Assembly: GCA_020853025.1 (NCBI GenBank)
Contig: JADYZP010000009.1
Span: 86,410-150,409 of the forward strand
Reading direction: 5' to 3'
DNA from: Burkholderiales bacterium
GTDB taxonomy: Bacteria > Pseudomonadota > Gammaproteobacteria > Burkholderiales > Casimicrobiaceae
DNA length: 64,000 nucleotides
Shown: in pieces, positions 14,761 to 31,151 of the stretch
Layout: the number at the start of each line of letters is the position of its first letter
Position numbering within the stretch: the stretch's first letter is position 1
Made by a program: the position numbers and the translations under genes
The notes under the pieces: generated by a model
What the model was told of the DNA's origin: nothing
The model's input: the letters and a program-made list of their open reading frames with translations, nothing else
Database searches by the model: none

Positions 14761-14933
14761 GTGGTACCACGCAGGACCCCGGTGTGAATACCGCATCACG
14801 TTGCGTGCGTCCCACGATTCTCCAAAGCTGCGCGCAACTCTATGCTGGTGGGGAGATTCGATTTGGCGAACAACCTCGCAGGCTTGTGATTGCGACCTCG
14901 GGTGTTCTCCGACGGTCTACAAAACGGGTGGGA

Positions 14934-16652
14934 ATGAATATGAAACTTTGCAAAGCAGCAGTTCTGGCGGCCACGGTACTGATCGTGGCGTTCGTACCGA
15001 TATCGGCTGCATTGGCGCAGGCGCCGGCCAAGAAGCCCAACATCATGTTCATCATGGGTGACGACATCGGCTGGATGCAGCCGTCCATCTACCATCAGGG
15101 CGTGATGGTCGGCGAGACGCCGAACATCGACCGCATCGGCAAGGAAGGTGCGAAGTTCATGACCTACTATGCCGAGCAAAGCTGCACCGCCGGGCGCAAC
15201 GCGTTCTTCACCGGCATGCATCCGCTGCGCACCGGCATGATCCCGCCACAACTGCCCGGCAGTCCGTCGTGGCTGCGCCCCGGCACACCGGCGCTTTCGA
15301 AGTTCCTGCTCGATCTTGGCTACACCACCGGCGAATTCGGCAAGAACCACCTGGGCGATCACTTCGAGGCACTGCCGACCTCGCATGGCTTCCAGGAATT
15401 CTGGGGCTACCTGTACCACCTCGACGCCATGCAGGGTGTGAGCTTCGTCGACATCAACAAGACCCCGCTGGTGCAGGGTATCGCGCCGCCGTGCAAGAAC
15501 ACGCCGATCACCGGATTGCCCGAGGTGCCCGGCGCCGTGGATCCGAAGACGACCACCTGCCTGACCCCACCGCGCCCCGTCATCTCATGCAAGTCCAGCG
15601 ACGGCACGCAGAAGAACACCATCTGCAAGGACGAGGGCCTGTTGACGCTGGACCGCTCGCGGACCATCGACGAGGAGATCTCGGCGAAGGTGATCGATTT
15701 CCTCGACCGCAATGACCCCAAAAAGACCAACAAGCCCTTCTTCGTCTGGTACAACCCGGCGCGCATGCACATCACGACCATGCTGTCGCCGAAGTACGAA
15801 GCCATGGTCGGTGAACCCGGTGGCAAGGACTGGGGCACCAACGAAGCCGGCATGAAGCAGATGGACGATAACATCGGCTACGTCATCAAGAAGCTCGAGG
15901 ACATGGGCCAGCTCGACAACACCATCATCGTCTTCACCACCGACAACGGCGCCGAAACGATCACCTTTCCGGACGGCGGCACCACCCCGTTCAAGGGCGG
16001 CAAGCTGACAACCTGGGAAGGCGGCATGCGTGCTCCAGCGGTCATGCGCTGGCCCGGCGTCATCAAGCCCGGCACGGTGTTGGACGATATCTTCTCGTCA
16101 CTCGACTGGGTGCCGACCTTCGTCGACATTGCCGGTGGGAAGAAGGGCAACGCACTGAACGAGCAGATCATGGCGGGCAAGTATCCCGGCATCGTCAAGA
16201 CCAAGCTCGACGGTTTCGACCAGACGGATTACCTGAGCGGCAAGTCGCAAAAATCTGCGCGCGAGGTCTACTTCTATTACACCGGCTCGCAGCCGTCGGC
16301 AGTGCGCTACAAGAACTGGAAGATGTACTACACCATCGTGCCGGATACCGCGACGGGCGGGCTGTATGGAGCCACCAGCTTTCACTGGACTCAACTTCTC
16401 AACCTGAAGCGTGATCCTTTCGAGACCACGGTGGGCAGCGACACGAAGTCCCTGCTGGCTGTCGGCGGTGCGTTGGGCTCGACCGGAAACGCCTATATCT
16501 ATAACTGGAACATGCTGCCGATCGGGCAGTTGTTGTGGGAGAAGGAGCTGATGTCCTACAAGGAATTCCCGCCGATGCAGGCGCCGGAGACCTACAACCT
16601 GGACGGCATTCTCAAGGCCATGCAACGTAACAGCCACGCCGGCCACGATTGA
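14934..16652 (+). CDS. Arylsulfatase (family S1, Cys-type)
   Basis: Signal peptide; KPNIMFIMGDD, SCTAGR signature, GKNHLG, TDNG and WEGGMR. Confidence 0.92.
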   Translation: MNMKLCKAAVLAATVLIVAFVPISAALAQAPAKKPNIMFIMGDDIGWMQPSIYHQGVMVGETPNIDRIGKEGAKFMTYYAEQSCTAGRNAFFTGMHPLRTGMIPPQLPGSPSWLRPGTPALSKFLLDLGYTTGEFGKNHLGDHFEALPTSHGFQEFWGYLYHLDAMQGVSFVDINKTPLVQGIAPPCKNTPITGLPEVPGAVDPKTTTCLTPPRPVISCKSSDGTQKNTICKDEGLLTLDRSRTIDEEISAKVIDFLDRNDPKKTNKPFFVWYNPARMHITTMLSPKYEAMVGEPGGKDWGTNEAGMKQMDDNIGYVIKKLEDMGQLDNTIIVFTTDNGAETITFPDGGTTPFKGGKLTTWEGGMRAPAVMRWPGVIKPGTVLDDIFSSLDWVPTFVDIAGGKKGNALNEQIMAGKYPGIVKTKLDGFDQTDYLSGKSQKSAREVYFYYTGSQPSAVRYKNWKMYYTIVPDTATGGLYGATSFHWTQLLNLKRDPFETTVGSDTKSLLAVGGALGSTGNAYIYNWNMLPIGQLLWEKELMSYKEFPPMQAPETYNLDGILKAMQRNSHAGHD

Positions 16653-16680
16653 GTTGAAAGGCTGACGGAAGGCGTTGATC

Positions 16681-16716
16681 GGGCGGGCGGCTGGAATCAG
16701 CCGCCCGTTCGTTTCT
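16681..16716 (+). terminator. Probable intrinsic terminator or stability hairpin after sulfatase 1
   Basis: GGGCGGCTG-GAAT-CAGCCGCCC stem, extendable by G-U pairs, followed by GTTTCT. Confidence 0.5.
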
Positions 16717-16790
16717 GATGAACCTTGTTGCCGGTGAGGGCAAAGGTTTGCTGTCCGTTCGCCATCGGGGCATTTTGAGTGGGAGGAACC

Positions 16791-17822
16791 ATGATTTCGG
16801 CATCCAGCGATTTCCGACACCTACGCCGGCAGGTATTTGTCCTGCTTGCGTCCCTGGTCTTCGCGGCATCGGCGTTGGCACAAACCGACCCTCTGCCCTC
16901 CTGGAACGACGGCGCGGCCAGGAAGGCCATCGTCGAGTTCGTCAAGACCACTACCACGCAGGGCAGCCCGCAGTTCGTGGCGCCGGCCGAGCGCATCGCT
17001 ACCTTCGACCAGGACGGCACGCTATGGGTCGAGCACCCGATGTACTCGTTCGTAATGTACGCGCTGGAGCGCGTAGCGGTGCTCGCCAAGGCCAAGCCCG
17101 AGCTCACGAACGTCGAGCCGTTCAAGACGGTGCTGTCGGGCAACCGCGAGGCGATGGCCAAGCTCAGCATGGGCGATCTCGAGAAGATCCTTGCTGCCAC
17201 CTTCACCGGCATGACGGTAGACGAGTTCAGCGCCGAGGTGACCAAGTGGATCGCCGGCGCCAAGGACCCGCGTTGGAAGCGGCCCTATACCGAACTGGTC
17301 TATCAGCCGATGCAGGAAGTGCTTCAGTACCTGCGCGACAACGGTTACAAGACCTACATCGTCACCGGCGGTGGCCAGGACTTCGTGCGCCAGTACTCGC
17401 AAGCGACCTACGGCATCCCGCCGGAACAGGTGGTCGGCACCGCCGGCGTGCTTAAATACGGTTACGACAAGAGTGGCAAGCCGATACTCAGGAAGCTGCC
17501 CAAGCTCCTGCTGAACGACAACGATACCGGCAAACCCGAAGGCATCCAGCTGATGATCGGTCGCCGGCCGCATGCAGCCGTCGGCAACTCGACCGGTGAT
17601 CGGCAGATGCTGGAGTACACGGGGGCGGGCGACGGCGCGCGGCTCATGATGCTGGTCCTGCATGACGACGCGAAACGCGAATACGCCTACGGCCCGGCGC
17701 AGGGTTTGCCGAACACCAAGGTCGGGACGTTCACCCAGCAGCTCTACGACGAGGCGACGAAGAAGCGCTGGATAGTCGTCAGCATGAAGAACGACTGGAA
17801 GAAGATTTTTTCCTTCGAGTAG
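16791..17822 (+). CDS. Secreted HAD-family hydrolase (acid-phosphatase-like)
   Basis: Signal peptide; FDQDGTLW (DxD), IVTGGG, GKP and GNSTGD motifs. Confidence 0.85.
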   Translation: MISASSDFRHLRRQVFVLLASLVFAASALAQTDPLPSWNDGAARKAIVEFVKTTTTQGSPQFVAPAERIATFDQDGTLWVEHPMYSFVMYALERVAVLAKAKPELTNVEPFKTVLSGNREAMAKLSMGDLEKILAATFTGMTVDEFSAEVTKWIAGAKDPRWKRPYTELVYQPMQEVLQYLRDNGYKTYIVTGGGQDFVRQYSQATYGIPPEQVVGTAGVLKYGYDKSGKPILRKLPKLLLNDNDTGKPEGIQLMIGRRPHAAVGNSTGDRQMLEYTGAGDGARLMMLVLHDDAKREYAYGPAQGLPNTKVGTFTQQLYDEATKKRWIVVSMKNDWKKIFSFE

Positions 17823-17847
17823 CGGCCGATGGGGCCGGAAAGAATTC

Positions 17848-19437
17848 ATGAAGATTCAGGCAGGTCAACCTGGGAATGGCAACATGAAGAACATGTTTGC
17901 GAAATTGCTTGCCGTTGCGTTTGCCGCCGTGATGTGCGTGCCGGTATGGGCGCAAACCAGTGGCAAGAAGCCGAACATCCTCATCATCTGGGGCGACGAT
18001 ATCGGCTACTGGAACGTCAGTGCCTACAACCAGGGCATGATGGGGTACAAGACGCCCAACATCGATCGCATCGCCAAGGAAGGCGCGCTGTTCACCGACT
18101 GGTACGGCCAGCAGAGTTGCACCGCGGGCAGGGCGGCGTTCATCACCGGCCAGTCACCGTTTCGCACCGGCCTCTTGAAAGTCGGCCTGCCCGGCGCCAA
18201 GGAAGGATTGCAGGCGCGCGATGTGACCATTGCCGAGCTCTTGAAGGCGCGAGGCTACCTCACCGGCCAGTTCGGCAAGAATCATCTGGGTGACCTCGAC
18301 GAACACCTGCCCACCGCGCACGGCTTCCAGGAGTTCATGGGTTCGCTCTACCACCTCAACGCCGAGGACGAGCCCGAACACGAGGACTACTTCAAGGACC
18401 CGGCGCTGCAAAAGCGCTTCGGCACGCGCGGTGTGATCCACTCCTGGGCCAACGCCGACGGCACGCAGCGCATCGAAAGCACCGGCGCGCTGAACAAGAA
18501 ACGCATGGAGACCATCGACGACGAGGTCACCGACGAAACCATCCGCTTCATGCGCGACGCGAAGAAGGCCGACAAGCCCTTCTTCCTGTGGTGGAACTCG
18601 ACACGCATGCACATCTGGACGCGGTTGAAGGAAGCATCGCGCGGAAAGACAGGGCTGGGCATCTACCCGGACGGCATGCTCGAGCACGACGCGCATGTCG
18701 GGCGCATCCTCGATGCGCTGAAGGAACTCGGCCTGGACGAGAACACCATCGTCATGTACTCCACCGACAACGGCGCCGAGAAGTTCACCTGGCCCGACGG
18801 TGGCACGTCACCGTTCCGCGGCGAGAAGAACACCAACTGGGAAGGCGGCTACCGCGTGCCGACCTTCATCCGCTGGCCCGGCGTCATCAAGCCCGGCACG
18901 ATACTGAACGACATATTCGCGCACGAGGACATGCTGCCGACGCTGCTGGCCGCAGCCGGCGTGCCCGACGTGAAGGAGCAGTTGCTCAAGGGCATGCAGG
19001 TCGGCAACAAGACCTTCAAGGTGCACCTGGACGGCTACGATGTGAGCGCGGCACTGGCCGGCAAGACGCCCAGCCCGCGCCATGACTTCTTCTACTTCAA
19101 CGACGATGGTCAATTGGTCGGTTTGCGCTACGACCAGTGGAAGATCGTGTTCGCCGAGCAGAAGGCGCATGGTGCCGCGGTCTGGCGCCAGCCGTTCACC
19201 ACGCTACGTGCGCCCAAGATCTTCAATATCCGTTCCGACCCGTTCGAGATCGGTGACGTCGAAGGCATGGACTGGAACCGGTGGTGGGTCGAGCACATCT
19301 TCCTGCTGGTCCCGGCACAGCAATACGTCGGGCAGTTCATCGGTACATTCCGCGAATTCCCGCCGAGCCAGAAGGGCGGGACGTTTGCGCTGGATGCGGC
19401 GTTGCAGGCGTTGCAGACTGCCGGCGGCAGCGACTGA
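17848..19437 (+). CDS. Arylsulfatase (family S1, Cys-type), second paralog
   Basis: KPNILIIWGDD, SCTAGR, GKNHLG, TDNG and WEGGYR; alternative start ATG 17884. Confidence 0.92.
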   Translation: MKIQAGQPGNGNMKNMFAKLLAVAFAAVMCVPVWAQTSGKKPNILIIWGDDIGYWNVSAYNQGMMGYKTPNIDRIAKEGALFTDWYGQQSCTAGRAAFITGQSPFRTGLLKVGLPGAKEGLQARDVTIAELLKARGYLTGQFGKNHLGDLDEHLPTAHGFQEFMGSLYHLNAEDEPEHEDYFKDPALQKRFGTRGVIHSWANADGTQRIESTGALNKKRMETIDDEVTDETIRFMRDAKKADKPFFLWWNSTRMHIWTRLKEASRGKTGLGIYPDGMLEHDAHVGRILDALKELGLDENTIVMYSTDNGAEKFTWPDGGTSPFRGEKNTNWEGGYRVPTFIRWPGVIKPGTILNDIFAHEDMLPTLLAAAGVPDVKEQLLKGMQVGNKTFKVHLDGYDVSAALAGKTPSPRHDFFYFNDDGQLVGLRYDQWKIVFAEQKAHGAAVWRQPFTTLRAPKIFNIRSDPFEIGDVEGMDWNRWWVEHIFLLVPAQQYVGQFIGTFREFPPSQKGGTFALDAALQALQTAGGSD

Positions 19438-19489
19438 CGTGAGGAATCGACCAGTGGTCACCAACAAAGAAAGTCTAGTCTCCAACCTA

Positions 19490-20278
19490 ATGAGGGTGCC
19501 TTTCATCGCGGGTCTGCTGTTCCTGGCCGGCTGCGCGGCGAATGGCGGCGGCGGCATGACGCTCGGCAGCGGCGGTGGCGCAAACGTCGTCGCATCCGAG
19601 GCCACCGTTGCCAAGGTGGCGCGAGTCGGATTCCTGACCGACTACGACAAGCTGCGGCCGCTGCCAGGCGGCGGAGGAATCCTGTGCTGGCGCACCGGCA
19701 ACGTCGACTGGAAGAAGTATGACGCGGTCCTCATCGAGCGCATTCAGCTGTACCTCAGTCGGGCTGGCGCGCCCCGATCGATCGACCCCAGCGACCTCAA
19801 GACGCTGCTGGACTATTTTCACAATGCCGTGGTCAAGGATCTCACGCCGACGACGCGTGTGGTCAACACCACGGGACCGGGGGTGCTCCGGGTGCGCTTC
19901 GCACTCACCGATCTGACGCCTACCGATGCCGCGGCGAGCCTCGCGGGAACCGCGATCCCCTATGGATTTGTCGCCGAGATCGGGTCGGGCACGGCCACTG
20001 GCAGACCGGCCGGTTCAACCCCGTATCTGGGGCAGACCGGCATGGAAGTGCAGTTTCGTGACGGAGCGACCGGCGCCGTCGTGGGGGAGTGCGCCGATAC
20101 CGAAATCGGTCGCAAGTATGCGGCGGCGTTGAATCAAGGTGCCACCAAGGCGGCCGATGCCTGGGTCAACGGTTACCTCGATTCATTCACGAGCTGGAGC
20201 TACGCGCAGGATGCATTCAACAAGTGGGCTGCCGAGTTCGCCAAGCGCTTCAATCAGCTGCGTGGCCTGTCGGGTTAG
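19490..20278 (+). CDS. DUF3313-like lipoprotein
   Basis: Lipobox LAGC; GFLTDY..L, W..YD.V.I, GPGVLRVRFALTD and 'F..WA' end typical of DUF3313. Alternative GTG start 19454. Confidence 0.7.
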   Translation: MRVPFIAGLLFLAGCAANGGGGMTLGSGGGANVVASEATVAKVARVGFLTDYDKLRPLPGGGGILCWRTGNVDWKKYDAVLIERIQLYLSRAGAPRSIDPSDLKTLLDYFHNAVVKDLTPTTRVVNTTGPGVLRVRFALTDLTPTDAAASLAGTAIPYGFVAEIGSGTATGRPAGSTPYLGQTGMEVQFRDGATGAVVGECADTEIGRKYAAALNQGATKAADAWVNGYLDSFTSWSYAQDAFNKWAAEFAKRFNQLRGLSG

Positions 20279-21725: not shown

Positions 21726-22679
21726 ATGAGTTCCGTTCCTGCGATGAGCCGCCGCGAGCGCTTCCTGGCCGCCGCCGACGGACGTGCCGTCGACCGGCCC
21801 CCGGTTGCCGCGTGGGTGCATTTCCTGTCCGACCATCTGCCCGGTGACGAGACGGCGCGGCTGCACCTCGAGTTCCTTCGCGCCTACGACTGGGACGTCG
21901 CGAAGCTGATGAACGATTATCGCTATCCGGTCCCGCCGGGTCTCGAGCTGCTCGATTCGGCGGAAGCGATGCGCCGCTTTCGGCCGCTTTCGCTCGACGA
22001 GCGCAGTTTCGCCGAGCAGCTGCGCGCGATCGAATGCCTGCGCCGCGAGCTGGGCCCCGACTGGCCGATTCTCGACACGCTGTTCGATCCCTACCAGCAG
22101 GTGCTGCGCAACGTCGGCTTCAACCAGGCCGCGGCGATTCCCGCGCATCGCGAGGCGGCGCTGGAGATGATCGATGCAGTGACCGATACGCTATGCCGCT
22201 ACGTCGCCGCCGCACGTATCGCCGGCGCCGATGGTTTTTTCCTGTCGATCAACGGCGCGATCCGTTCGGGCTTTCCGCGTGGCGGCGATGCCGACACCTT
22301 CCGCGATTTCCAGCGCCCCTTCGACCTGCGGCTGCTCGATGCCGCAAAGGGTTCGGTCCGCGTGCTTCATGTCCATGGCGTCGGACTCGATCTCGACCGC
22401 GTTCTCGATTATCCGTGCGAAGTATTCAGCGTCTCCGACCGCTTGCCGGGCAATCCCTCGCTCGCGGAACTACGCCGCCGCACCGATCGCTGTCTGATGG
22501 GCGGCATCGACGAGACCCGGTTCCAGGAACGTCCGTTGCCCGAGCTGCGCGCCGAAGTCGACGATGCCCTCGCGCAGGCGGGTCGCGAGCGCTTCATCCT
22601 GGCGCCCGGATGCACGCTGCCGTCGTTTTCCCCGCAGCGCTCGCTGCGGCATTTGCGCGAATACACGCTGACGCTTTGA
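21726..22679 (+). CDS. Uroporphyrinogen decarboxylase / MtaA-CmuA superfamily protein
   Basis: N-terminal 'RERFLAA..G..VDRPPV..W.H', LHVHG, LMGGID and RFILAPGC. Not called hemE. Confidence 0.8.
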   Translation: MSSVPAMSRRERFLAAADGRAVDRPPVAAWVHFLSDHLPGDETARLHLEFLRAYDWDVAKLMNDYRYPVPPGLELLDSAEAMRRFRPLSLDERSFAEQLRAIECLRRELGPDWPILDTLFDPYQQVLRNVGFNQAAAIPAHREAALEMIDAVTDTLCRYVAAARIAGADGFFLSINGAIRSGFPRGGDADTFRDFQRPFDLRLLDAAKGSVRVLHVHGVGLDLDRVLDYPCEVFSVSDRLPGNPSLAELRRRTDRCLMGGIDETRFQERPLPELRAEVDDALAQAGRERFILAPGCTLPSFSPQRSLRHLREYTLTL

Positions 22680-22874: not shown

Positions 22875-24014
22875 TTGAAGGTCGCGAGCCTCCTTGTCGC
22901 GTTGTCGCTGTCACTTGTCATCGAAAGTGTGCCGGCGCAGTCTCCGATGCGGGCGCCCACCGCCGGTCACAGCGCGATCAGCGTCGAAGCGCTGTGGATG
23001 TGGTTCAAGGCGAGCCCGACGCCGGTGCCGATCATCACCGACTACTATCTCGACGATCCGAGCACGCAGGTGCTGCTCGGCGGCGGCACGCTGGACACCC
23101 ATCCGAATCCTGGCTTTCGCGTCACCGGCGCGCACGGACTCGACGGCGGCTGGGGAATCGAGGCGATCGGCTTCTACGTTCCGTCGCGCTCGACCAGCAG
23201 CGGCGTGGCTTCGAGCGGCAAGGACGGCTCCACCGACCTCATGCTGCCGTTCTTCGACGTCACGATCGGTACGGAGAACATCACCGAGATCTCGTACTCG
23301 CCGGAATACGCAGGCAACGCGCAGCAGACGCTGTCGAACGACCTCTGGGGCGTCGAACTCAACGCCACACGGACGCTGGCGCCGCAGGGACCGTGGCGCG
23401 TCGACCTCGTCGGCGGATTGCGTTATCTGCAACTCACCGAGAACTATACGATCACGACCAGCAGCCCCTACATTCCGCCCGAACCGGCCGATATCTGGAA
23501 CACCACCGACCGCTTCGACACCCACAACCGCTTCTGGGGCCTCCAGATCGGCGCCCGGGCGGCCTACGACTCGGGGAACTGGATCGGCAGCGGCATGGTC
23601 AAGGTGGCACTCGGATCGATGCAACAGAAGGTGTCGATCGACGGCGGCCTCGTGACCAACGACTATACGAACTACGGCGCGACGCAGACCTTTCCTGGCG
23701 GCTACTTCGCGCTGCCGACGAACATCGGCGACTACTCGCGCAACGTCTTCGCGGTGGTGCCGGAGGTCGCACTGTCGATCGGCTACCGACTGACGCCGGC
23801 CGCAACGATCTACGTCGGCTATGCGTTCCTGTACGCCAGCGACGTCGCGCGCCCCGGCGAGCAGATCAATCGCAACATCAATCCGACGCAGACCGTTTCC
23901 TACGGCAACGATCCACCGGTCAATCCGGCCGGTCCCGCGCAGCCGACCTTCAGCTTCAGCACCACCGATTTCTGGGCGCAGAGCCTGACCATCGGACTGG
24001 CCTACCGGTTCTAG
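22875..24014 (+). CDS. BBP7-type outer-membrane beta-barrel protein
   Basis: Signal peptide; EALWMWFK, DLWGVELN, GGLRYLQL.E, THNRFWGLQIG, VVPEV...IGY, GY.FLY.SDVARPGEQIN and terminal GLAYRF. Probable TTG start 22875. Confidence 0.78.
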   Translation: MKVASLLVALSLSLVIESVPAQSPMRAPTAGHSAISVEALWMWFKASPTPVPIITDYYLDDPSTQVLLGGGTLDTHPNPGFRVTGAHGLDGGWGIEAIGFYVPSRSTSSGVASSGKDGSTDLMLPFFDVTIGTENITEISYSPEYAGNAQQTLSNDLWGVELNATRTLAPQGPWRVDLVGGLRYLQLTENYTITTSSPYIPPEPADIWNTTDRFDTHNRFWGLQIGARAAYDSGNWIGSGMVKVALGSMQQKVSIDGGLVTNDYTNYGATQTFPGGYFALPTNIGDYSRNVFAVVPEVALSIGYRLTPAATIYVGYAFLYASDVARPGEQINRNINPTQTVSYGNDPPVNPAGPAQPTFSFSTTDFWAQSLTIGLAYRF

Positions 24015-24024
24015 GGACCATTTG

Positions 24025-27000
24025 ATGAACACCCGCTTCCGAAATGCCGCGACCGTCGTCGCCGTCGCCATCACGCTCTCGCTTGGCCTCGCCGCGGCAG
24101 ACGTCGCCGCGCAGAAAAAGCCCGACGCCACGACCTGTCCGGACAAGAACGAACCGACGCGCAACACATTGCGGCCGGGTACCGGCAAGGATCTGGAGGT
24201 CACCGGGGTCTGCAAGGTGCCCGCCGGAACCTACAACTACGGCGACGTCAACATCTTCGCTGGCGGATCGCTGCAGTTCGACGATGCCGCGATCGACTTC
24301 TGGGCGTCGTCGATCCTGATCGAGAACCGCGGTGCGCTGATCGCGGGCAATCCGTCGGCGCCGATCGGCACCCAGAACGGGCAGCTGACGATCCACCTCT
24401 ACGGCAAGGACCAGGGTACCGGCGTCGGCACCGCCGGCGGCCAGGGTATCGTCTGCGAAATGGATGTGCGCTGCGGCATCCCGCAGGCGGTCTGGGACTC
24501 GGACGGCACGACGCTGGTACCGATCCCCGGCATGCCCGACGACTACTTCTATACCTATGGGTCGTTGCCCTTCGACGGCGGCGGCGCCACGCCGGGATTC
24601 TTCGGCTACAAGGTGCTCGCGGTGTCGTACGGCGGAACGCTGCAGCTCTTCGGCAAGAAGGGCGCGACCTACGGCAACGTCGACTCGTCGAACTCCGGCA
24701 CCAGCTGGGTACGCCTCGACCGGACGCTGCCCATCGGCAAGAACGAGGTCGTCCTCGACCGTCCGGTCGACTGGGCGATCGGCGACGAAATCGTCGTCAC
24801 CACGACCGACTATCTGCCGGCTCACTCCGAGCAGTTCACGATCATCGGCATCAAAGGCGACTCGAAGACGCTGACCGTCGACCGCAACGCCGCACACGAA
24901 CATCAGGGCAGGAAGTACGACCTGTCCGGCGTCGGCATCAAGCTGTCGTTCAAGGAAGCCGAGACGCGCGCGGCAGTCGGCCTGCTGTCGCGGAGCATCC
25001 GCATCGTTTCCGAGGGCGACGCCTTCGACACGCCGCTGCCCGCCGACAGCTTTTTCGGTGGCCACACTATCGTCCGCCAGGGCTTCGCGAAGTTCCAGGT
25101 GCAGGGCGTGGAGTTCAGGCAACTGGGACAAGGCGGCCGTCTCGGCCATTATCCGGTGCACTTCCACATGGTGCGCGCCGCGCCGCCCGACACCTTCGTC
25201 AAGGATTCGACTGTCAACGAGTCGATGACTCGCTTCATGACGCTGCACGCGACACAGAACGTAACGCTGGCGCGCAACGTCGGCTGGAAGTCGATCGGCC
25301 ACGGCTTCTACATCGAGGACGGCACCGAATACGACAACCGCTTCCTGACCAACCTCGGCGTCTTCGCCCGCGCCGCCATCGTCAACAAGGACAACCCGCG
25401 CAAGGTGCCGGGCATCCTCGCCGCGGCGCGCGATCCGGGCTACCCGGAGAACGTGCCCTTCTATTCGGACTACGACCACCCCGCCGTGTTCTGGATCATG
25501 AACGGCTGGAACGACTTCGAGTACAACATGGCCGCCGGTGCCGGTACCTGTGGCATTTGCTACTGGCTGGTGCCCGGCGCCAACAGCGGCCACTCGCGAA
25601 ATATGAAGTGGAAATCCTACGCGTCGATGCAGGCCAATCCACCGACGGGCAACCCGCTGGCGAAGGCGGCGACGACTCCGCTCAAGCGCTTTGTCGGCAA
25701 CGGCTGCAGCTCGGCGATGAACGCCTTTAACACCATCGGCAACACGACGGCGTGCTGGGGCGTAGGGACGGGCGCGCAAGCCACTGTCGCGGTGGTTGCC
25801 AACCCGCTGGCACCGCCGTGGTGCGACCAGACCAATCCACGCGACAAGGATGGAAAGTACCTGCCGAACGCATGCATCGTGCACATGCACGGCGACGACG
25901 GCGGCAAATACGCAGTGAACGCCGACGAGTACTACCCGAAGGTCGACAAGGGCGGCGGCCGCTTCGCCACCCGCTGCGGTCCCAACGAGGACTGCAGCAA
26001 CGTGCCGCGCTGCGACGGCGGCCAGCTCGACCGCTGCATGGTCACCGCGCTGGAAGGCTTCACCACGTCGTTCAACTGGGCGGAGACCAATTTCTCCGCC
26101 ATCTGGCTGCGGCCGCAGTGGTACCTGGTCACCGACAGCGTCATCACCGACGTGCAGAACGGCGGCCTCACCATCGTCACCGGCGGCGGCTACACGGACT
26201 CCGACCTGGTCAAGGGCCATTGGGCGCTGCTGCGCAACAGCGCGCTGATCGGCAGTACGCAGCCCGGCAATCCGTATGCGTCCGACGTCGGGCCCTTCAA
26301 TCCCGGCGGACTGAAGTGCGACAACGCCGCACCCGGCAACTATTGCCTCGATGCCGATGAAGGCGTCAGCTTCCTGATCAGCAACTTCGGCACCTACCAG
26401 CGATTTTTCAACATCTACGACGGACCGGCGTACCAGGAGAACAACGCCTACCTGAACATCCGCAAGACTATCCTCGACGACTGCCAGCCGGGCGGCACCG
26501 AATGCCGTTCGAGCCGGTACCTGGTGGCACAGATCCTCGGCGTGCCGCAGGCCGACGGCAAGTGCTACGCACCCAATGCCGCGATCGGCTGGAAGCAGCC
26601 GAATGGCTTCTACTATCCACCGGCATTCCATTCGCACAACCTCTACTTCAGCGACGTCGACATCCGCCATTTCGTCATCGAGCCGCTGTTTATCACCGAT
26701 CCCGCCAAGAAGGGGAACCAGAACTACAAGACCGACGCCGCCGCAGTGCTCAAAGCCTACTGCACGTCGGCGAGCAACATGTTCGACAACTTCACCGACG
26801 TCGACCGGCAGACCGAGCTGACCGACGACGACGGCTCGCTCACCGGCTACGTGAAGACCGTGTCGGTCAATTCCGACCCGTTCTTCAACGCGCCGGTCGA
26901 ACAGACCGAGTGCGAGTCGGACGAGACCGCCAAGACCAGCCCCTACGACTACGTCACGTCGGTTGTCTATCCAGGCTGTGCGGTCAACGGCACTTGCGGC

Positions 27001-27861
27001 GCGAAGGATGGGCCTCCGCGCTGGGATTCGGACTGCACCAATGGCCAGTGCTACGGCGTGCCGCTCTACCGGCAGCTGCTCACGAAGAGCGAACAGTCAA
27101 CGGGGGTGTCGTCGATCCGCATGGCGGGTCAGGACACCTACCAGCGCAGCACACTGACGCCCAATAACGCCGTCTACTACATCGACACCACGGTCAGCCT
27201 GCAGCGGCAGATGCTAAGTTCCGGGAACGTCAACGTGTTTGGCGCTGGGCAGTCGTACTACACGTTCATGCTGTTCGCGAACGCGAAGACCACGCAGACC
27301 TACCAGATGTACGTCGGCGCCGGATTCGATCCCAATCAGGATGTCTGGGCGACGCAGGCCGACATCTCGCAAAAACGCGTGCACTTCTCGCATCTCGCCG
27401 CGTGGCCGTCCGGCTGGGGCCGCAGCTACGACGAGAAGTCGGGTGTACTCACGGTGACGATGAACATGTCGTTCCCGGAGTTCGCCGCGAACCTCGAAAA
27501 GGCGCGCGCGGGCACCTGCGGACCGGCGACGTTCTGCTCGAGCAAGGGCAGCGTTTGCAGCTGTGCGTTGTCCCCGGGTGACCCGCTCTACGCCGCCTGC
27601 AGCGCGAAGAACAGCCTCGGACAGGACGCGTGTAGCTGGTCGAACAAGGATACCGCCTGTCCGGAGGGCGGCTGCTACGGCATCGGCTTCAAGCTCGCGC
27701 CGAGCTTCAAGACCGATCCACAGACTGATCCGCGTCCGGCGGCCGCGTGTTTTCCGAAGGAAGCAGCTGCGGGCTGGAACGTCAATTTCGTGCCCGCATC
27801 GGCGCCGGTGGCCGGGTCCTGCTACAACGCGCCGATTCCGCCGAACCAGTTCTGCGACTGA
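24025..27861 (+). CDS. Secreted G8-domain / parallel beta-helix protein (CEMIP/TMEM2/fibrocystin-like), Cys-rich
   Basis: Signal peptide; G8-like 'VNIFAGGSLQF...SILIENRGALIAG...LTIHLYG'; SWVRL, VDW.IGDEIVVTTTDY, AVGLLSRSIRI, GQGGRLGHYPVHFHM and HATQNVTL.RNVGW.SIGHGFYIEDG. Confidence 0.82.
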   Translation: MNTRFRNAATVVAVAITLSLGLAAADVAAQKKPDATTCPDKNEPTRNTLRPGTGKDLEVTGVCKVPAGTYNYGDVNIFAGGSLQFDDAAIDFWASSILIENRGALIAGNPSAPIGTQNGQLTIHLYGKDQGTGVGTAGGQGIVCEMDVRCGIPQAVWDSDGTTLVPIPGMPDDYFYTYGSLPFDGGGATPGFFGYKVLAVSYGGTLQLFGKKGATYGNVDSSNSGTSWVRLDRTLPIGKNEVVLDRPVDWAIGDEIVVTTTDYLPAHSEQFTIIGIKGDSKTLTVDRNAAHEHQGRKYDLSGVGIKLSFKEAETRAAVGLLSRSIRIVSEGDAFDTPLPADSFFGGHTIVRQGFAKFQVQGVEFRQLGQGGRLGHYPVHFHMVRAAPPDTFVKDSTVNESMTRFMTLHATQNVTLARNVGWKSIGHGFYIEDGTEYDNRFLTNLGVFARAAIVNKDNPRKVPGILAAARDPGYPENVPFYSDYDHPAVFWIMNGWNDFEYNMAAGAGTCGICYWLVPGANSGHSRNMKWKSYASMQANPPTGNPLAKAATTPLKRFVGNGCSSAMNAFNTIGNTTACWGVGTGAQATVAVVANPLAPPWCDQTNPRDKDGKYLPNACIVHMHGDDGGKYAVNADEYYPKVDKGGGRFATRCGPNEDCSNVPRCDGGQLDRCMVTALEGFTTSFNWAETNFSAIWLRPQWYLVTDSVITDVQNGGLTIVTGGGYTDSDLVKGHWALLRNSALIGSTQPGNPYASDVGPFNPGGLKCDNAAPGNYCLDADEGVSFLISNFGTYQRFFNIYDGPAYQENNAYLNIRKTILDDCQPGGTECRSSRYLVAQILGVPQADGKCYAPNAAIGWKQPNGFYYPPAFHSHNLYFSDVDIRHFVIEPLFITDPAKKGNQNYKTDAAAVLKAYCTSASNMFDNFTDVDRQTELTDDDGSLTGYVKTVSVNSDPFFNAPVEQTECESDETAKTSPYDYVTSVVYPGCAVNGTCGAKDGPPRWDSDCTNGQCYGVPLYRQLLTKSEQSTGVSSIRMAGQDTYQRSTLTPNNAVYYIDTTVSLQRQMLSSGNVNVFGAGQSYYTFMLFANAKTTQTYQMYVGAGFDPNQDVWATQADISQKRVHFSHLAAWPSGWGRSYDEKSGVLTVTMNMSFPEFAANLEKARAGTCGPATFCSSKGSVCSCALSPGDPLYAACSAKNSLGQDACSWSNKDTACPEGGCYGIGFKLAPSFKTDPQTDPRPAAACFPKEAAAGWNVNFVPASAPVAGSCYNAPIPPNQFCD

Positions 27862-27892: not shown

Positions 27893-29026
27893 TCAGCGCG
27901 TCGCCACGACGTCGGCCAGCGCCTCGAACATCTCCTGCGCTAGGTTCAGGTCGCCACGATCGCCTACGGGTGTCGCGTTGATCGAAACGGCGATCGTCGC
28001 ACCGGTGCGCGGATCGTAGAACGCAGCGGCTTGCCAGCCGATGCCCGAGCCCGTGTGACCCCACCATCCCGCCAGAATACCGATGCCGAGGCCGTAGCGA
28101 TCGTATTCCGGTCCGTAGGTCACGACGCGCGAGCGGTCGATGCGCTCGCGCTGCAGGTCGGGGCCGATCAACCGGCCGTCGCCGAGCGCCAGCGCCCAGG
28201 TCGCGAGGTCATCGAGCGTGGACTCCATTGCTCCGGCTCCGGCGAGCGCAGTCGGGTTGATCAGCGGCAGCTCCTCGCTGGTACCGGTGACGACGTTGAC
28301 TTCGTACGGTGTCGCATGCGGAAGCGGCAGTGCCACCTGCGAGGGGTACGATGTTCCGGTCAACCGCAGCGGCGCGAAGATCCGCGCGCGCAGCACCTCG
28401 TCCAGCGGCGCTCGGGTGACGCGCTCGATGATCATGCCGAGCAGTACGGTGTTGGTGTTGCTGTACTCGTACCGCGCGCCCGGCGCAAATACCGGCGAAC
28501 CGGGAATGGAGAAGTCGACCAGCTCCTGCTCGGTGAACGCGCGCGCGACATCGGCGCCGAATTCGGCCTGGAATTGCTTGGTGGCACTATAGTCGGCGAT
28601 GCCGCTTTGCATGCCGGCCAGGTCGGCCAGAGTGATCAGCTCGCCGTTCGGAATGCCCGGAATCCAGGTCTCGAGCTTGTCCTCGAGCGACAGCGCCCCC
28701 TCACGCACGAGCTGCAGCAGCACCGTCACCGTGTACGATTTGGTGATGCTGCGGATCGAAAAATGGCTGCGCGGCTCGATCGGCGTCCTGTTGGCAATGT
28801 TGCCCACGCCAAGAGCGACCCGCCATTCGGGATCGCCGGGGTAGCGGACGCTGACCAGCGCGCCGGGCACGTGGTAGCGCTGCATCACGCTTTGCGCGGC
28901 CGCAGCATAGCGCGTCCCGACCGGCGGGAACTCGTCGCTGGTGCAGGATGAGAGCGTGCCCGCCAGTACGAATATCGGAAAGGCGCGCGTCCAGCCGCCC
29001 CGCTTCGTTGTCTTGTCTTCATTCAC
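27893..29026 (-). CDS. Serine hydrolase (beta-lactamase/penicillin-recognizing family), probable lipoprotein
   Basis: SITK (SxxK), YSN (YxN) and WWGHTG; lipobox LSSC; GTG 29026 with GGAG RBS. Confidence 0.88.
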   Translation of the reverse strand: MNEDKTTKRGGWTRAFPIFVLAGTLSSCTSDEFPPVGTRYAAAAQSVMQRYHVPGALVSVRYPGDPEWRVALGVGNIANRTPIEPRSHFSIRSITKSYTVTVLLQLVREGALSLEDKLETWIPGIPNGELITLADLAGMQSGIADYSATKQFQAEFGADVARAFTEQELVDFSIPGSPVFAPGARYEYSNTNTVLLGMIIERVTRAPLDEVLRARIFAPLRLTGTSYPSQVALPLPHATPYEVNVVTGTSEELPLINPTALAGAGAMESTLDDLATWALALGDGRLIGPDLQRERIDRSRVVTYGPEYDRYGLGIGILAGWWGHTGSGIGWQAAAFYDPRTGATIAVSINATPVGDRGDLNLAQEMFEALADVVATR

Positions 29027-29257
29027 GGTCGGACTCCGGATTCGCCTCCCGCAGTTTAAACGCTCCGCACGGCGTCGGGCGCGACCCGGCAATTGGCTCA
29101 TCGGTGCTGATCACGGCGTTCATCGACTGCGGCGGCCTTTTCATCTTCCTCGTGTTCGCGACGCTGTTCCTCGTCAACTGATCCGGCCAGCACGCGGAAT
29201 AATCCATGCCGGCCGATGTTTGCCGCAATATCGTCCCCCAACTTTGAGGAGTTCTCC

Positions 29258-29704: not shown

Positions 29705-30253
29705 GTGAGCGCCGCTGCCGCCGACCCGCCGCTGCCGGCGCCCGAACTCCTTGCGGCAATTCCACGCATGCGGCGATATGCGCGCGTGCTCACCGGTGAC
29801 GCGACCCGTGCCGACGATCTCGTCCAGGAGGCGCTGGCGCGGGCCTGGGAGAAGCGGCGACTGTGGGCCGCAGGAACCGATCTTCGCGCCTGGCTTTTCA
29901 CGATCATGCACAACGTTTTCGTCAACCAGCGCGCACTGGCGCGTTACGAGCGCAATCATGTCTCGCTCGATGCCGAAAGCGAAGCTGCGCACGGGTGGCA
30001 AGTCCCGGTTCGCGACATGCAGTACACGCGCGTGGAGCTGTCTGAATTGCTGCAGCATGTGGGCCGGCTGCCGGTGGAGCAACGCGAGGTGCTCGTGCTC
30101 GCGGTGGTCGAGGAGCTGCGTTACGAGGAGATCGCCGCCATGCTCGCCATTCCCATGGGGACGGTGATGTCACGCCTCTCGCGGGCGCGCGAGAAGCTGC
30201 GCGCGGTGTTTGCCGACAACAGCGCGGTCCCGCCGCTCAAGATGGTCAAGTGA
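29705..30253 (+). CDS. ECF sigma factor (ECF26-like)
   Basis: IPRMRRYAR.LTGD...ADDLVQE, AWLFTIMHN and GTVMSRLSRAR. Confidence 0.92.
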   Translation: MSAAAADPPLPAPELLAAIPRMRRYARVLTGDATRADDLVQEALARAWEKRRLWAAGTDLRAWLFTIMHNVFVNQRALARYERNHVSLDAESEAAHGWQVPVRDMQYTRVELSELLQHVGRLPVEQREVLVLAVVEELRYEEIAAMLAIPMGTVMSRLSRAREKLRAVFADNSAVPPLKMVK

Positions 30254-30260
30254 GTTGCCG

Positions 30261-31151
30261 ATGAACCCGCTGCCCGTCAGTGATGCCGATATCCATGCCT
30301 ACGTCGATAGCCAGTTGGCGCCCAAACGCATGCCGGCCGTGGAGGACGCGCTTGCGCGCGATCCCGCACTCGCGGCGCGAGTGACCGAACTACGCCAGCA
30401 GAACGCGTCGTTGCGCGATGCTTTCGATCCGTGGCTCGACGAAGCCTTGCCCGAGCGCCTGGTCGCCGGCGCGGCCGCTCCGCGCGCAAACAGGCAGTGG
30501 ATGCCCTCGTGGGTAGGGATGGCGCTTGCCGCCGCCGCATGCCTCGTGGTCGGCGTGGGCCTCGGTTGGTTCGGTCGTGAAATCAGCCTCGAAAACGACG
30601 GTACGCCGATCACCTTCACGCGGCAGGCGGCGCTCGTGCACGCGCTCTATGCAAGTGACGCCAATCGACCGGTGGAGATCTGGGCGGCGGAAGAGCAACG
30701 GCTCGTGCGCTGGCTGTCGCGCCGCCTGGGCTTCCAGGTGCGCGCGCCAGATCTCAATTCGCTGGGCTTTGCGCTCGTGGGCGGTCGACTCGTGGCCGGC
30801 AACGAAAATCCCACGGCGCTGTTCGTGTACGAGAACGCCGACAAGCGGCGCCTGACGCTCCAGGTGCGCAAGCCGGTGAATGTGGGCCACGAGACCGCCT
30901 TCCGCTACGCGGTCGAAGACGGCGTGGGCGTGTATTACTGGGTCGAGGAAAACGCCACTTACGCGCTGTCCGGCAACCTCGACCGCGGGCAGCTCCTGGC
31001 GATCGGTCGCGTGGTCTACGGGCAACTCGCGACGCTGGAGGCCGCACCCGCGTCCACGGCGCCGGCGGCAACACCGGCTCCCAAGGCACCCGATGCCATG
31101 CCTGTACCTGCGAGGCCCCCAACAACAGCGCCAGTGCAAAAGCTGTCGTAG
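30261..31151 (+). CDS. Transmembrane anti-sigma factor
   Basis: DIHAYVD..L, a single TM segment (MALAAAACLVVGVGLGW) and periplasmic 'PDL..LGF.LVGGRL' typical of ECF26 partners; Pro/Ala tail. Confidence 0.88.
   Translation: MNPLPVSDADIHAYVDSQLAPKRMPAVEDALARDPALAARVTELRQQNASLRDAFDPWLDEALPERLVAGAAAPRANRQWMPSWVGMALAAAACLVVGVGLGWFGREISLENDGTPITFTRQAALVHALYASDANRPVEIWAAEEQRLVRWLSRRLGFQVRAPDLNSLGFALVGGRLVAGNENPTALFVYENADKRRLTLQVRKPVNVGHETAFRYAVEDGVGVYYWVEENATYALSGNLDRGQLLAIGRVVYGQLATLEAAPASTAPAATPAPKAPDAMPVPARPPTTAPVQKLS

Follow-up and report, generated by a model that had tools for sequence, protein, structure and literature searches.

A BBP7-family outer-membrane beta-barrel, possibly a porin-type channel, encoded beside a giant G8/CEMIP-type exported protein in a Burkholderiales bacterium

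Background

In a stretch of 64,000 nucleotides from a Burkholderiales bacterium of the Casimicrobiaceae (assembly GCA_020853025.1, contig JADYZP010000009.1, positions 86,410 to 150,409; hereafter the window, whose own numbering is used throughout), a gene for an outer-membrane beta-barrel of the BBP7 family is directly followed by a gene for a giant exported protein with a G8 domain and a CEMIP-type beta-helix. Among the closest described systems, KdgM of Dickeya and NanC of Escherichia coli are small, monomeric, 12-strand outer-membrane channels that are co-encoded and co-regulated with glycan-degrading enzymes, including beta-helix pectate lyases, and that pass the oligosaccharide products. 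In type Vb (two-partner) secretion, the TpsB barrel is of the Omp85 type, with 16 strands and POTRA domains, and its passenger TpsA has a two-partner secretion (TPS) domain; type V passengers are cysteine-poor, and proteins that are disulfide-bonded or haem-loaded fold in the periplasm and block narrow-barrel type V secretion. In CopA/CopB, PcoA/PcoB and MtrAB, tight gene linkage joins an outer-membrane barrel (of 26 strands in MtrB) to a large metallo- or haem enzyme that is exported.

The BBP7 family (PF07585) was formerly named DUF1551 (PMC4827864), and the TCDB family 1.B.72 (PomS/T) lists DUF1551 (PMC4827864); PomS has been shown experimentally to be a general porin or diffusion pore (PMC3561449). 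The statement in an earlier note on this DNA, made from the sequence alone, that BBP7 has no established function was thus too strong. No paper describing the pairing of a BBP7 barrel with a giant protein was found in a full-text literature search, and the pairing appears to be undescribed. The barrel of the window is read here, tentatively and at a little under an even chance, as a small porin-type channel that would serve giant envelope or exo-enzymes.

Results and discussion

The barrel gene and its giant neighbour

The two genes and their principal features are as follows.

22875 (TTG) to 24014 (TAG), + strand: BBP7-family outer-membrane beta-barrel gene, 379 aa, with a PF07585 match
22875 to 22940, + strand: signal peptide of the barrel, aa 1-22, cleavage after VPA, read from the translation
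24015 to 24024, + strand: 10-nt intergenic junction, with a Shine-Dalgarno-like AGGGA overlapping the TAG stop of the barrel gene
24025 to 27861, + strand: G8 gene, 1278 aa, for a Sec-exported TMEM2/CEMIP-type protein (G8, parallel beta-helix and C-terminal domains; PF10162, PF24606 and AlphaFold2 model)
24025 to 24111, + strand: signal peptide of the G8 protein, aa 1-29, cleavage after VAA, read from the translation
24235 to 24414, + strand: G8 domain, aa 71-130 (PF10162, E 1.1e-9, 38.6 bits, cut-off 22.9)
25054 to 25722, + strand: CEMIP-type beta-helix core, aa 344-566, with the motif GHYPVHFH (PF24606, E 2e-45, 155.6 bits, cut-off 27.3)

The earlier note had described a barrel gene ending 10 nt before the gene of a 1278-aa signal-peptide G8 protein; its coordinates and features were found to be as described, and hidden Markov model searches placed both of the families that it had named, PF07585 and PF10162, above cut-off. 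The PF07585 match on the barrel (E 3e-63, 214.6 bits, cut-off 26) extends over residues 59-379 and covers profile positions 35-350 of 350, above the gathering threshold, and it was repeated on the genome. BBP7 is the sole Pfam family on the protein, and no NCBIfam match was found; some close homologues carry a precomputed match to PF05150 (Legionella_OMP). The translation begins with the signal peptide KVASLLVALSLSLVIESVPA, followed by QS, and ends in GLAYRF, so that signal peptide, strands and C-terminal aromatic residue are all those of an outer-membrane beta-barrel. The public gene call (P0003, 355 aa) starts at an internal ATG at 22947 and has no signal peptide. The TTG at 22875 appears to be the better start, as it restores a typical signal peptide, and the longer form is preferred because the consensus of the homologues also has an N-terminal signal peptide.

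An AlphaFold2 model of the barrel, built from 41 homologues (mean predicted local distance difference test score, pLDDT, 81.6), has about 12 long strands with short periplasmic turns, two long extracellular loops, L1 (aa 45-77) and L6 (aa 326-362), and a low-confidence helix at residues 2-11, in the signal-peptide region; there is no POTRA- or TPR-like periplasmic domain on the model. Foldseek matched the model exclusively to outer-membrane barrels, the best of which are all narrow: Legionella porin I (9nh1; TM-score 0.70-0.72, target-length-normalised), the omptins OmpT and Pla, and OpcA. An omptin-type protease was considered and rejected, the likeness being one of fold only, with no omptin Pfam match and no invariant His, Ser or Cys among the 41 barrel sequences.

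The giant protein has a Sec-type signal peptide, MNTRFRNAATVVAVAITLSLGLAAADVAA, followed by QKK, and no barrel, lipobox, TPS or anchor domain by Pfam and NCBIfam. It contains 36 cysteines, at least 21 of which are invariant across phyla in an alignment of 36 sequences, as are Y346, P347, H349 and H351 (numbered in the aligned fragment, which starts at protein residue 31). A phmmer comparison with the TMEM2 structure 8c6i gave E 2.8e-25 and aligned GHYPVHFH to GRYPVHFH of TMEM2, the common motif being GxYPVHFH. The AlphaFold2 model of residues 31-1230, built from 36 sequences (pLDDT 78.2), was matched by Foldseek to the TMEM2 ectodomain (8c6i) over its whole length (E 2.2e-26, probability 1.00), with a query-length-normalised TM-score of 0.48 and about 13% identity over 1460 alignment columns; the next-best matches were phage tailspike polysaccharide lyases. 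Judging from the model, the G8 protein is most likely a disulfide-rich enzyme acting on polysaccharide. The active site and the activity of TMEM2 are themselves disputed (PMC10206443 versus PMC10474455). The predicted destination of the G8 protein is the periplasm, or the outside via a secretin system of the genome; three secretins are encoded there, so an export route independent of the barrel is available.

The two genes do not overlap, the gap between the barrel stop and the ATG of the G8 gene (24025) being 10 nt, and the gap is 10-16 nt in seven G8-linked loci, among them L087, L108, L004, L006, L007 and L090. A scan for promoters and terminators found no site between the barrel and G8 genes and was otherwise uninformative. 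The two genes are probably co-transcribed, and their spacing makes translational coupling plausible. The genome of 3.65 Mb has no other BBP7 or CEMIP-type gene, yet these two adjoin, and their pairing in the window is therefore more than chance.

Conservation of the association

More than 486 homologues of the barrel exist, and the best 120 are all at least 61% identical to it. A giant gene adjoins the barrel in 23 of the 23 loci with enough flanking sequence, a G8-type gene in 11 and a gene for a second kind of giant protein, termed DHOR-like, in 12, and among these informative loci no barrel of the window's subfamily was found without a giant neighbour. The 23 loci are phylogenetically related and do not represent 23 independent events, and most of them lie on metagenome-assembled genomes or metagenome contigs. 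Since at most about 122 stop-to-stop frames of the window's own genome reach 1000 aa, which is less than about 4% of some 3,400 genes (a rough estimate from genome size), chance adjacency would be expected in at most about 7% of cases per locus. The pair of barrel and G8 gene was found at a minimum of 10 further loci, with the two genes in reversed order at one of them, and this bears out across genomes the adjacency that the earlier note had taken from a single locus.

The DHOR-like partner is a protein of about 1100-1200 aa with a C-terminal di-haem DHOR domain (PF06537, weak match), two CxxCH motifs and at least 24 cysteines; its N-terminal 700 aa or so have no Pfam or PDB match. The DHOR domain occurs fused in a secreted GH26-CBM 1,3-xylanase (PMC9638140). 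The gene usually lies directly upstream of the barrel gene (downstream in L110). Six such genes, beside barrels that are 61-69% identical to that of the window, are located as follows.

L088:2651-5977, L089:2702-6004, L114:1627-4953, L117:1639-4950, L107:983-4171 and L111:1266-4871: DHOR-like genes beside barrels, 50-64% identical to one another

At three other loci (L109:1758-4968, L110:6172-9630 and L115:1575-4940), all in long-read metagenome assemblies, the DHOR-like gene is in several frames, for which homopolymer assembly errors are a more likely explanation than pseudogenes. The DHOR-like giant was found in 0 of 301 genomes of the order. The two partner families have no common domain (hhalign probability 0.15%), and a docking domain or terminal motif shared by both was sought and not found. 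In L108:1-10248, a G8 paralogue, a DLH hydrolase gene (- strand), a BBP7 gene, a second G8 paralogue and a beta-lactamase-fold gene (- strand) follow one another; another barrel gene, some 140 kb distant on that contig, adjoins a DHOR-like gene (L089), so that this contig has two barrels, each with a giant gene of its own. One barrel-bearing assembly, that of L088 (GCA_035278705.1), is labelled Vicinamibacterales. As 0 of 301 sampled Acidobacteriota genomes contain BBP7, its label is doubted: the contig may be mis-binned, or the copy may have arrived by an infrequent transfer.

In the barrel tree, a split with support of 100/99 separates nine G8-linked barrels from a clade that holds all twelve DHOR-linked barrels and two linked to very divergent G8 proteins. 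Congruence between the trees of barrels and partners was not rejected by approximately unbiased (AU) tests (p 0.10 and 0.32). Swapping of barrels between partners was also considered, as a barrel and its G8 protein do not have matching nearest neighbours on their respective trees, but in view of these tests no claim of swapping is made. Only 7 of 347 positions separate the G8-linked from the DHOR-linked barrel clade (1 of 96 loop positions, 2 of 31 turn positions and 4 in strands), and the loops are conserved as strongly as the strands. From this the barrel looks partner-independent at the molecular level, which argues against partner-specific docking at the cell surface and favours a function of its own from which both giant enzymes would benefit.

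Seen from the G8 side, the association is much looser. A scan centred on the G8 gene identified 287 relatives in species genomes, the best 80 loci being 43-77% identical to the query, with hosts among the Acidobacteriota, Desulfobacterota-type lineages, Binatia, Thiocapsa, a methanotroph and others. A BBP7 barrel is present at 4 of these best 80 loci, directly upstream of the G8 gene in L004, L006 and L007 and directly downstream in L003, and among 40 genomes encoding a G8 orthologue, 35 lack BBP7 altogether. In genome G331 the G8 orthologue stands alone and the single barrel of the genome adjoins a DHOR-like gene instead. No other widely conserved neighbour was found beside the G8 genes of the best 80 loci. 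Another type of barrel taking the place of BBP7 beside barrel-less G8 genes was also looked for and rejected, the neighbours within subclades being an NHL/Vgb-lyase-like protein, an amine oxidase and an ABC ATPase. The G8 orthologues with and without a barrel align end to end, and neither group has an added docking module. On the tree of G8 proteins, a single clade of 12 rows, mostly betaproteobacterial, takes in eight of the nine barrel-linked genes, and barrel linkage changes 5 times, compared with 8.3 times in shuffles. The link between barrel and giant is thus asymmetric: the barrel is always found with a giant partner, whereas the G8 family is mostly free of the barrel and, since most genomes with a G8 orthologue lack BBP7, does not need it.

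Possible functions of the barrel

The tentatively preferred reading is that of a horizontally acquired envelope module with two core genes, one for a narrow BBP7 barrel and one for a Sec-exported giant enzyme. The barrel would be a partner-independent accessory with no role in moving the giant protein over the outer membrane; its channel would pass small, oligosaccharide-sized substrates or products of the enzyme across that membrane, and hosts that had acquired the enzyme would gain solute passage by the barrel, following the logic of KdgM and NanC beside glycan-degrading enzymes. The earlier note had offered a porin as one of its two alternatives. In favour of a channel, both partner types have ties to polysaccharide breakdown, the G8 protein by the likeness of its model to TMEM2 and tailspike lyases, the DHOR-like protein by the xylanase cited above; the listing of DUF1551 with the PomS/T porins and the likeness in fold to Legionella porin I point the same way. 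Several points weigh against this reading. The long structured loop L1 of the model might plug the lumen. Unusually for a locus of nutrient uptake, the pair has no conserved neighbour that encodes an inner-membrane transporter or a cytoplasmic catabolic protein. The exclusive placement beside giant proteins is not obviously explained by a channel, and the near-invariant extracellular loops could be covered by a protein. Partner type changes 3 times on the barrel tree, compared with 7.8 times in shuffles, which fits a lasting physical partnership or co-inheritance equally well.

Some of the same observations suit a surface dock or anchor, in which some other pathway, such as type II secretion, takes the giant protein out of the periplasm and the barrel tethers it to the cell surface or to the inner side of the outer membrane, the two genes together forming a display module. 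Such a role, a serious rival though unlikely on balance, is consistent with the strict adjacency to giant exported proteins at all 23 loci, the tight conserved spacing, extracellular loops (L1, L5 and L6) so nearly invariant as to seem shielded, the lack of conserved uptake or catabolic genes nearby, the grouping of barrels by partner type, the location of 2 of the 7 clade-specific positions in periplasmic turns, and the three secretins by which the own genome could export the G8 protein. It is difficult to reconcile with two partner families that have no domain or terminal motif in common for recognition, with extracellular loops that are alike whatever the partner (1 of 96 positions differing), with barrel-less G8 orthologues that align end to end with barrel-linked ones, and with the 35 of 40 G8-orthologue genomes that cope without a barrel. 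In a broader and rather unlikely form of the idea, BBP7 barrels would be partner-agnostic outer-membrane devices that dock, assemble or display giant disulfide- or haem-bearing exoproteins, a new two-gene surface-display system. If that were true, the device would be distinct from type V secretion, Slam and porin-cytochrome complexes, and the bacterial TMEM2-like enzyme would be part of a membrane-tethered complex, an echo of the anchoring of animal TMEM2.

The earlier note had raised the possibility that the barrel is a dedicated non-Omp85 translocator exporting the G8 protein, which would make the pair a kind of two-partner system or split autotransporter, and the proposal has some appeal: the barrel adjoins a large, beta-helical, signal-peptide protein that itself lacks a barrel, DUF1551 is placed with autotransporter-like barrels in TCDB, and a size of about 12 strands resembles that of autotransporter barrels. 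The pair is indeed without an Omp85/TpsB protein by Pfam and NCBIfam, as the note had supposed; however, neither protein has POTRA/Omp85, TPS (haemagglutination activity) or autotransporter domains, and the barrel is narrow and without a periplasmic domain. The G8 protein has 36 cysteines, and the alternative partner 24 with CxxCH haem motifs. Because partners so rich in cysteine or haem are incompatible with threading through a narrow barrel, a translocator is very unlikely, and the proposal also fails to account for the 35 of 40 G8-orthologue genomes without BBP7 and for G331, where the barrel stands beside the other partner and the G8 gene alone. The absence of any specific functional link, with the barrel a general porin or a hitch-hiker in a mobile cassette and the adjacency due to shared descent of a few related loci, is improbable. 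Most loci do come from metagenome-assembled genomes of related soil Betaproteobacteria, relatives of the PomS type are general porins, the G8 family is usually barrel-free, and a single origin of each association is compatible with the AU tests. On the other hand, the association persists across barrels that are 61-78% and G8 partners that are 26-79% identical, survives the inversion of gene order in L003, is equally tight with two unrelated partner families, and recurs on one contig with two barrels each beside its own giant (L089, L108); a barrel of this subfamily was never found alone, and no mobile-element genes flank the pair in the window.

Horizontal acquisition and neighbouring genes

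The occurrence of the pair among relatives agrees with the earlier note in regarding it as likely horizontally acquired. Among 301 genomes of the order, 1 has BBP7 and 4 have a CEMIP-type gene, and among 401 of the phylum, 2 have BBP7; two genomes of the same genus have neither gene. A DNA search of window positions 14.0-33.9 kb against six genomes of the same genus or family matched both flanks in relatives (15.0-20.2 kb on the left and 29.07-31.03 kb on the right), and found no match in the six for the stretch from about 21.7 to 29.07 kb, which contains the URO-D-like, barrel, G8 and beta-lactamase-fold genes. The BBP7-G8 module is judged to be horizontally acquired because same-genus genomes lack the pair and BBP7 is rare in the order. 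The two other genes of the unmatched stretch are as follows.

21726 to 22679, + strand: URO-D-like gene (PF01208, E 1e-16)
27893 to 29101, - strand: gene for a beta-lactamase-fold serine hydrolase, probably a lipoprotein (PF00144, E 6e-56; LAGTLSSC lipobox, SxxK motif)

The beta-lactamase-fold gene is convergent to the G8 gene, their stop codons lying 31 nt apart, and has the same convergent position, at 63-71% identity, in L003, L004, L007 and L108. This frequent companion of the pair may count as a third member of the module and could encode an esterase or a deacylase, for example. The URO-D-like gene had no tblastn match at the related loci, and its membership is doubtful because it lies inside the stretch missing from relatives yet is not kept beside the pair elsewhere.

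To the left of this stretch, positions 14784-20278 hold a cluster of two sulfatase genes, a HAD hydrolase gene and the gene of a DUF3313 lipoprotein, which have 70-79% DNA identity to same-genus and same-family genomes without the pair. As the cluster is kept in such relatives, its genes are native neighbours, separate from the acquired unit. A sulfatase-linked locus for glycosaminoglycan utilisation was accordingly rejected, the sulfatases being native by the DNA matches of relatives and absent from other G8-BBP7 loci. The DHOR-BBP7 locus L114:9105-11137 has, like the window, a sulfatase gene and a TctC gene within 5 kb; the recurrence is probably a coincidence in Burkholderiales-type genomes. 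Immediately to the right of the acquired stretch, positions 29705-31151 (+ strand) encode a sigma factor of the extracytoplasmic function type (PhyR_sigma2/Sigma70_r2/r4) and then a DUF3379-like putative anti-sigma protein; both genes are native, because they are conserved in relatives.

Comparison with known systems

The association provides a first genomic context for this BBP7 subfamily: the barrels of one abundant soil subfamily are firmly tied to giant exoproteins of two unrelated families, both highly conserved and uncharacterised. It also offers a bacterial counterpart of TMEM2/CEMIP with a defined accessory protein, a compact two-gene module that could be a tractable model. With the barrel dispensable for the G8 family at large and a translocator very unlikely, attention shifts to channel and docking functions.

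The likeness of the window barrel to KdgM and NanC is one of functional logic only, a barrel beside a glycan-type enzyme. The families are different, no KdgM Pfam match being found on the window barrel, and the window barrel has strict one-to-one adjacency to a single giant enzyme, without conserved catabolic or transport genes. The relation to PomS and PomT of Protochlamydia (TCDB 1.B.72) is given by the listing of DUF1551 in TCDB, while the major outer-membrane porin of Legionella (9nh1) is the best structural match of the barrel model. PomS/T and the Legionella porin are abundant housekeeping proteins with no reported pairing with a giant exoprotein, whereas the window barrel is a single acquired copy.

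The window pair resembles type Va and type Vb secretion in that a barrel gene lies beside the gene of a large beta-helical exoprotein, probably in one operon. It differs from type Vb in both partners, the barrel having about 12 strands, no family but BBP7 and no periplasmic domain, unlike TpsB, and the 1278-aa protein having only the G8 and CEMIP_beta-hel families in Pfam, unlike TpsA; it differs from type Va in that neither protein matches an autotransporter family and the passenger candidate has 36 cysteines. The G8 protein shares G8 and CEMIP beta-helix domains with TMEM2 (CEMIP2) and CEMIP/KIAA1199/HYBID, and the GxYPVHFH motif and a whole-length likeness of fold with TMEM2, but unlike vertebrate TMEM2 it is bacterial, Sec-exported, without a transmembrane anchor and paired with an outer-membrane barrel. 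The CopAB, PcoAB and MtrAB systems bear on the DHOR-like partner loci of the window's barrel subfamily; their barrels are of other families and sizes, no electron-transfer or metal-resistance genes lie near the window pair, and its G8 protein is not a haem partner.

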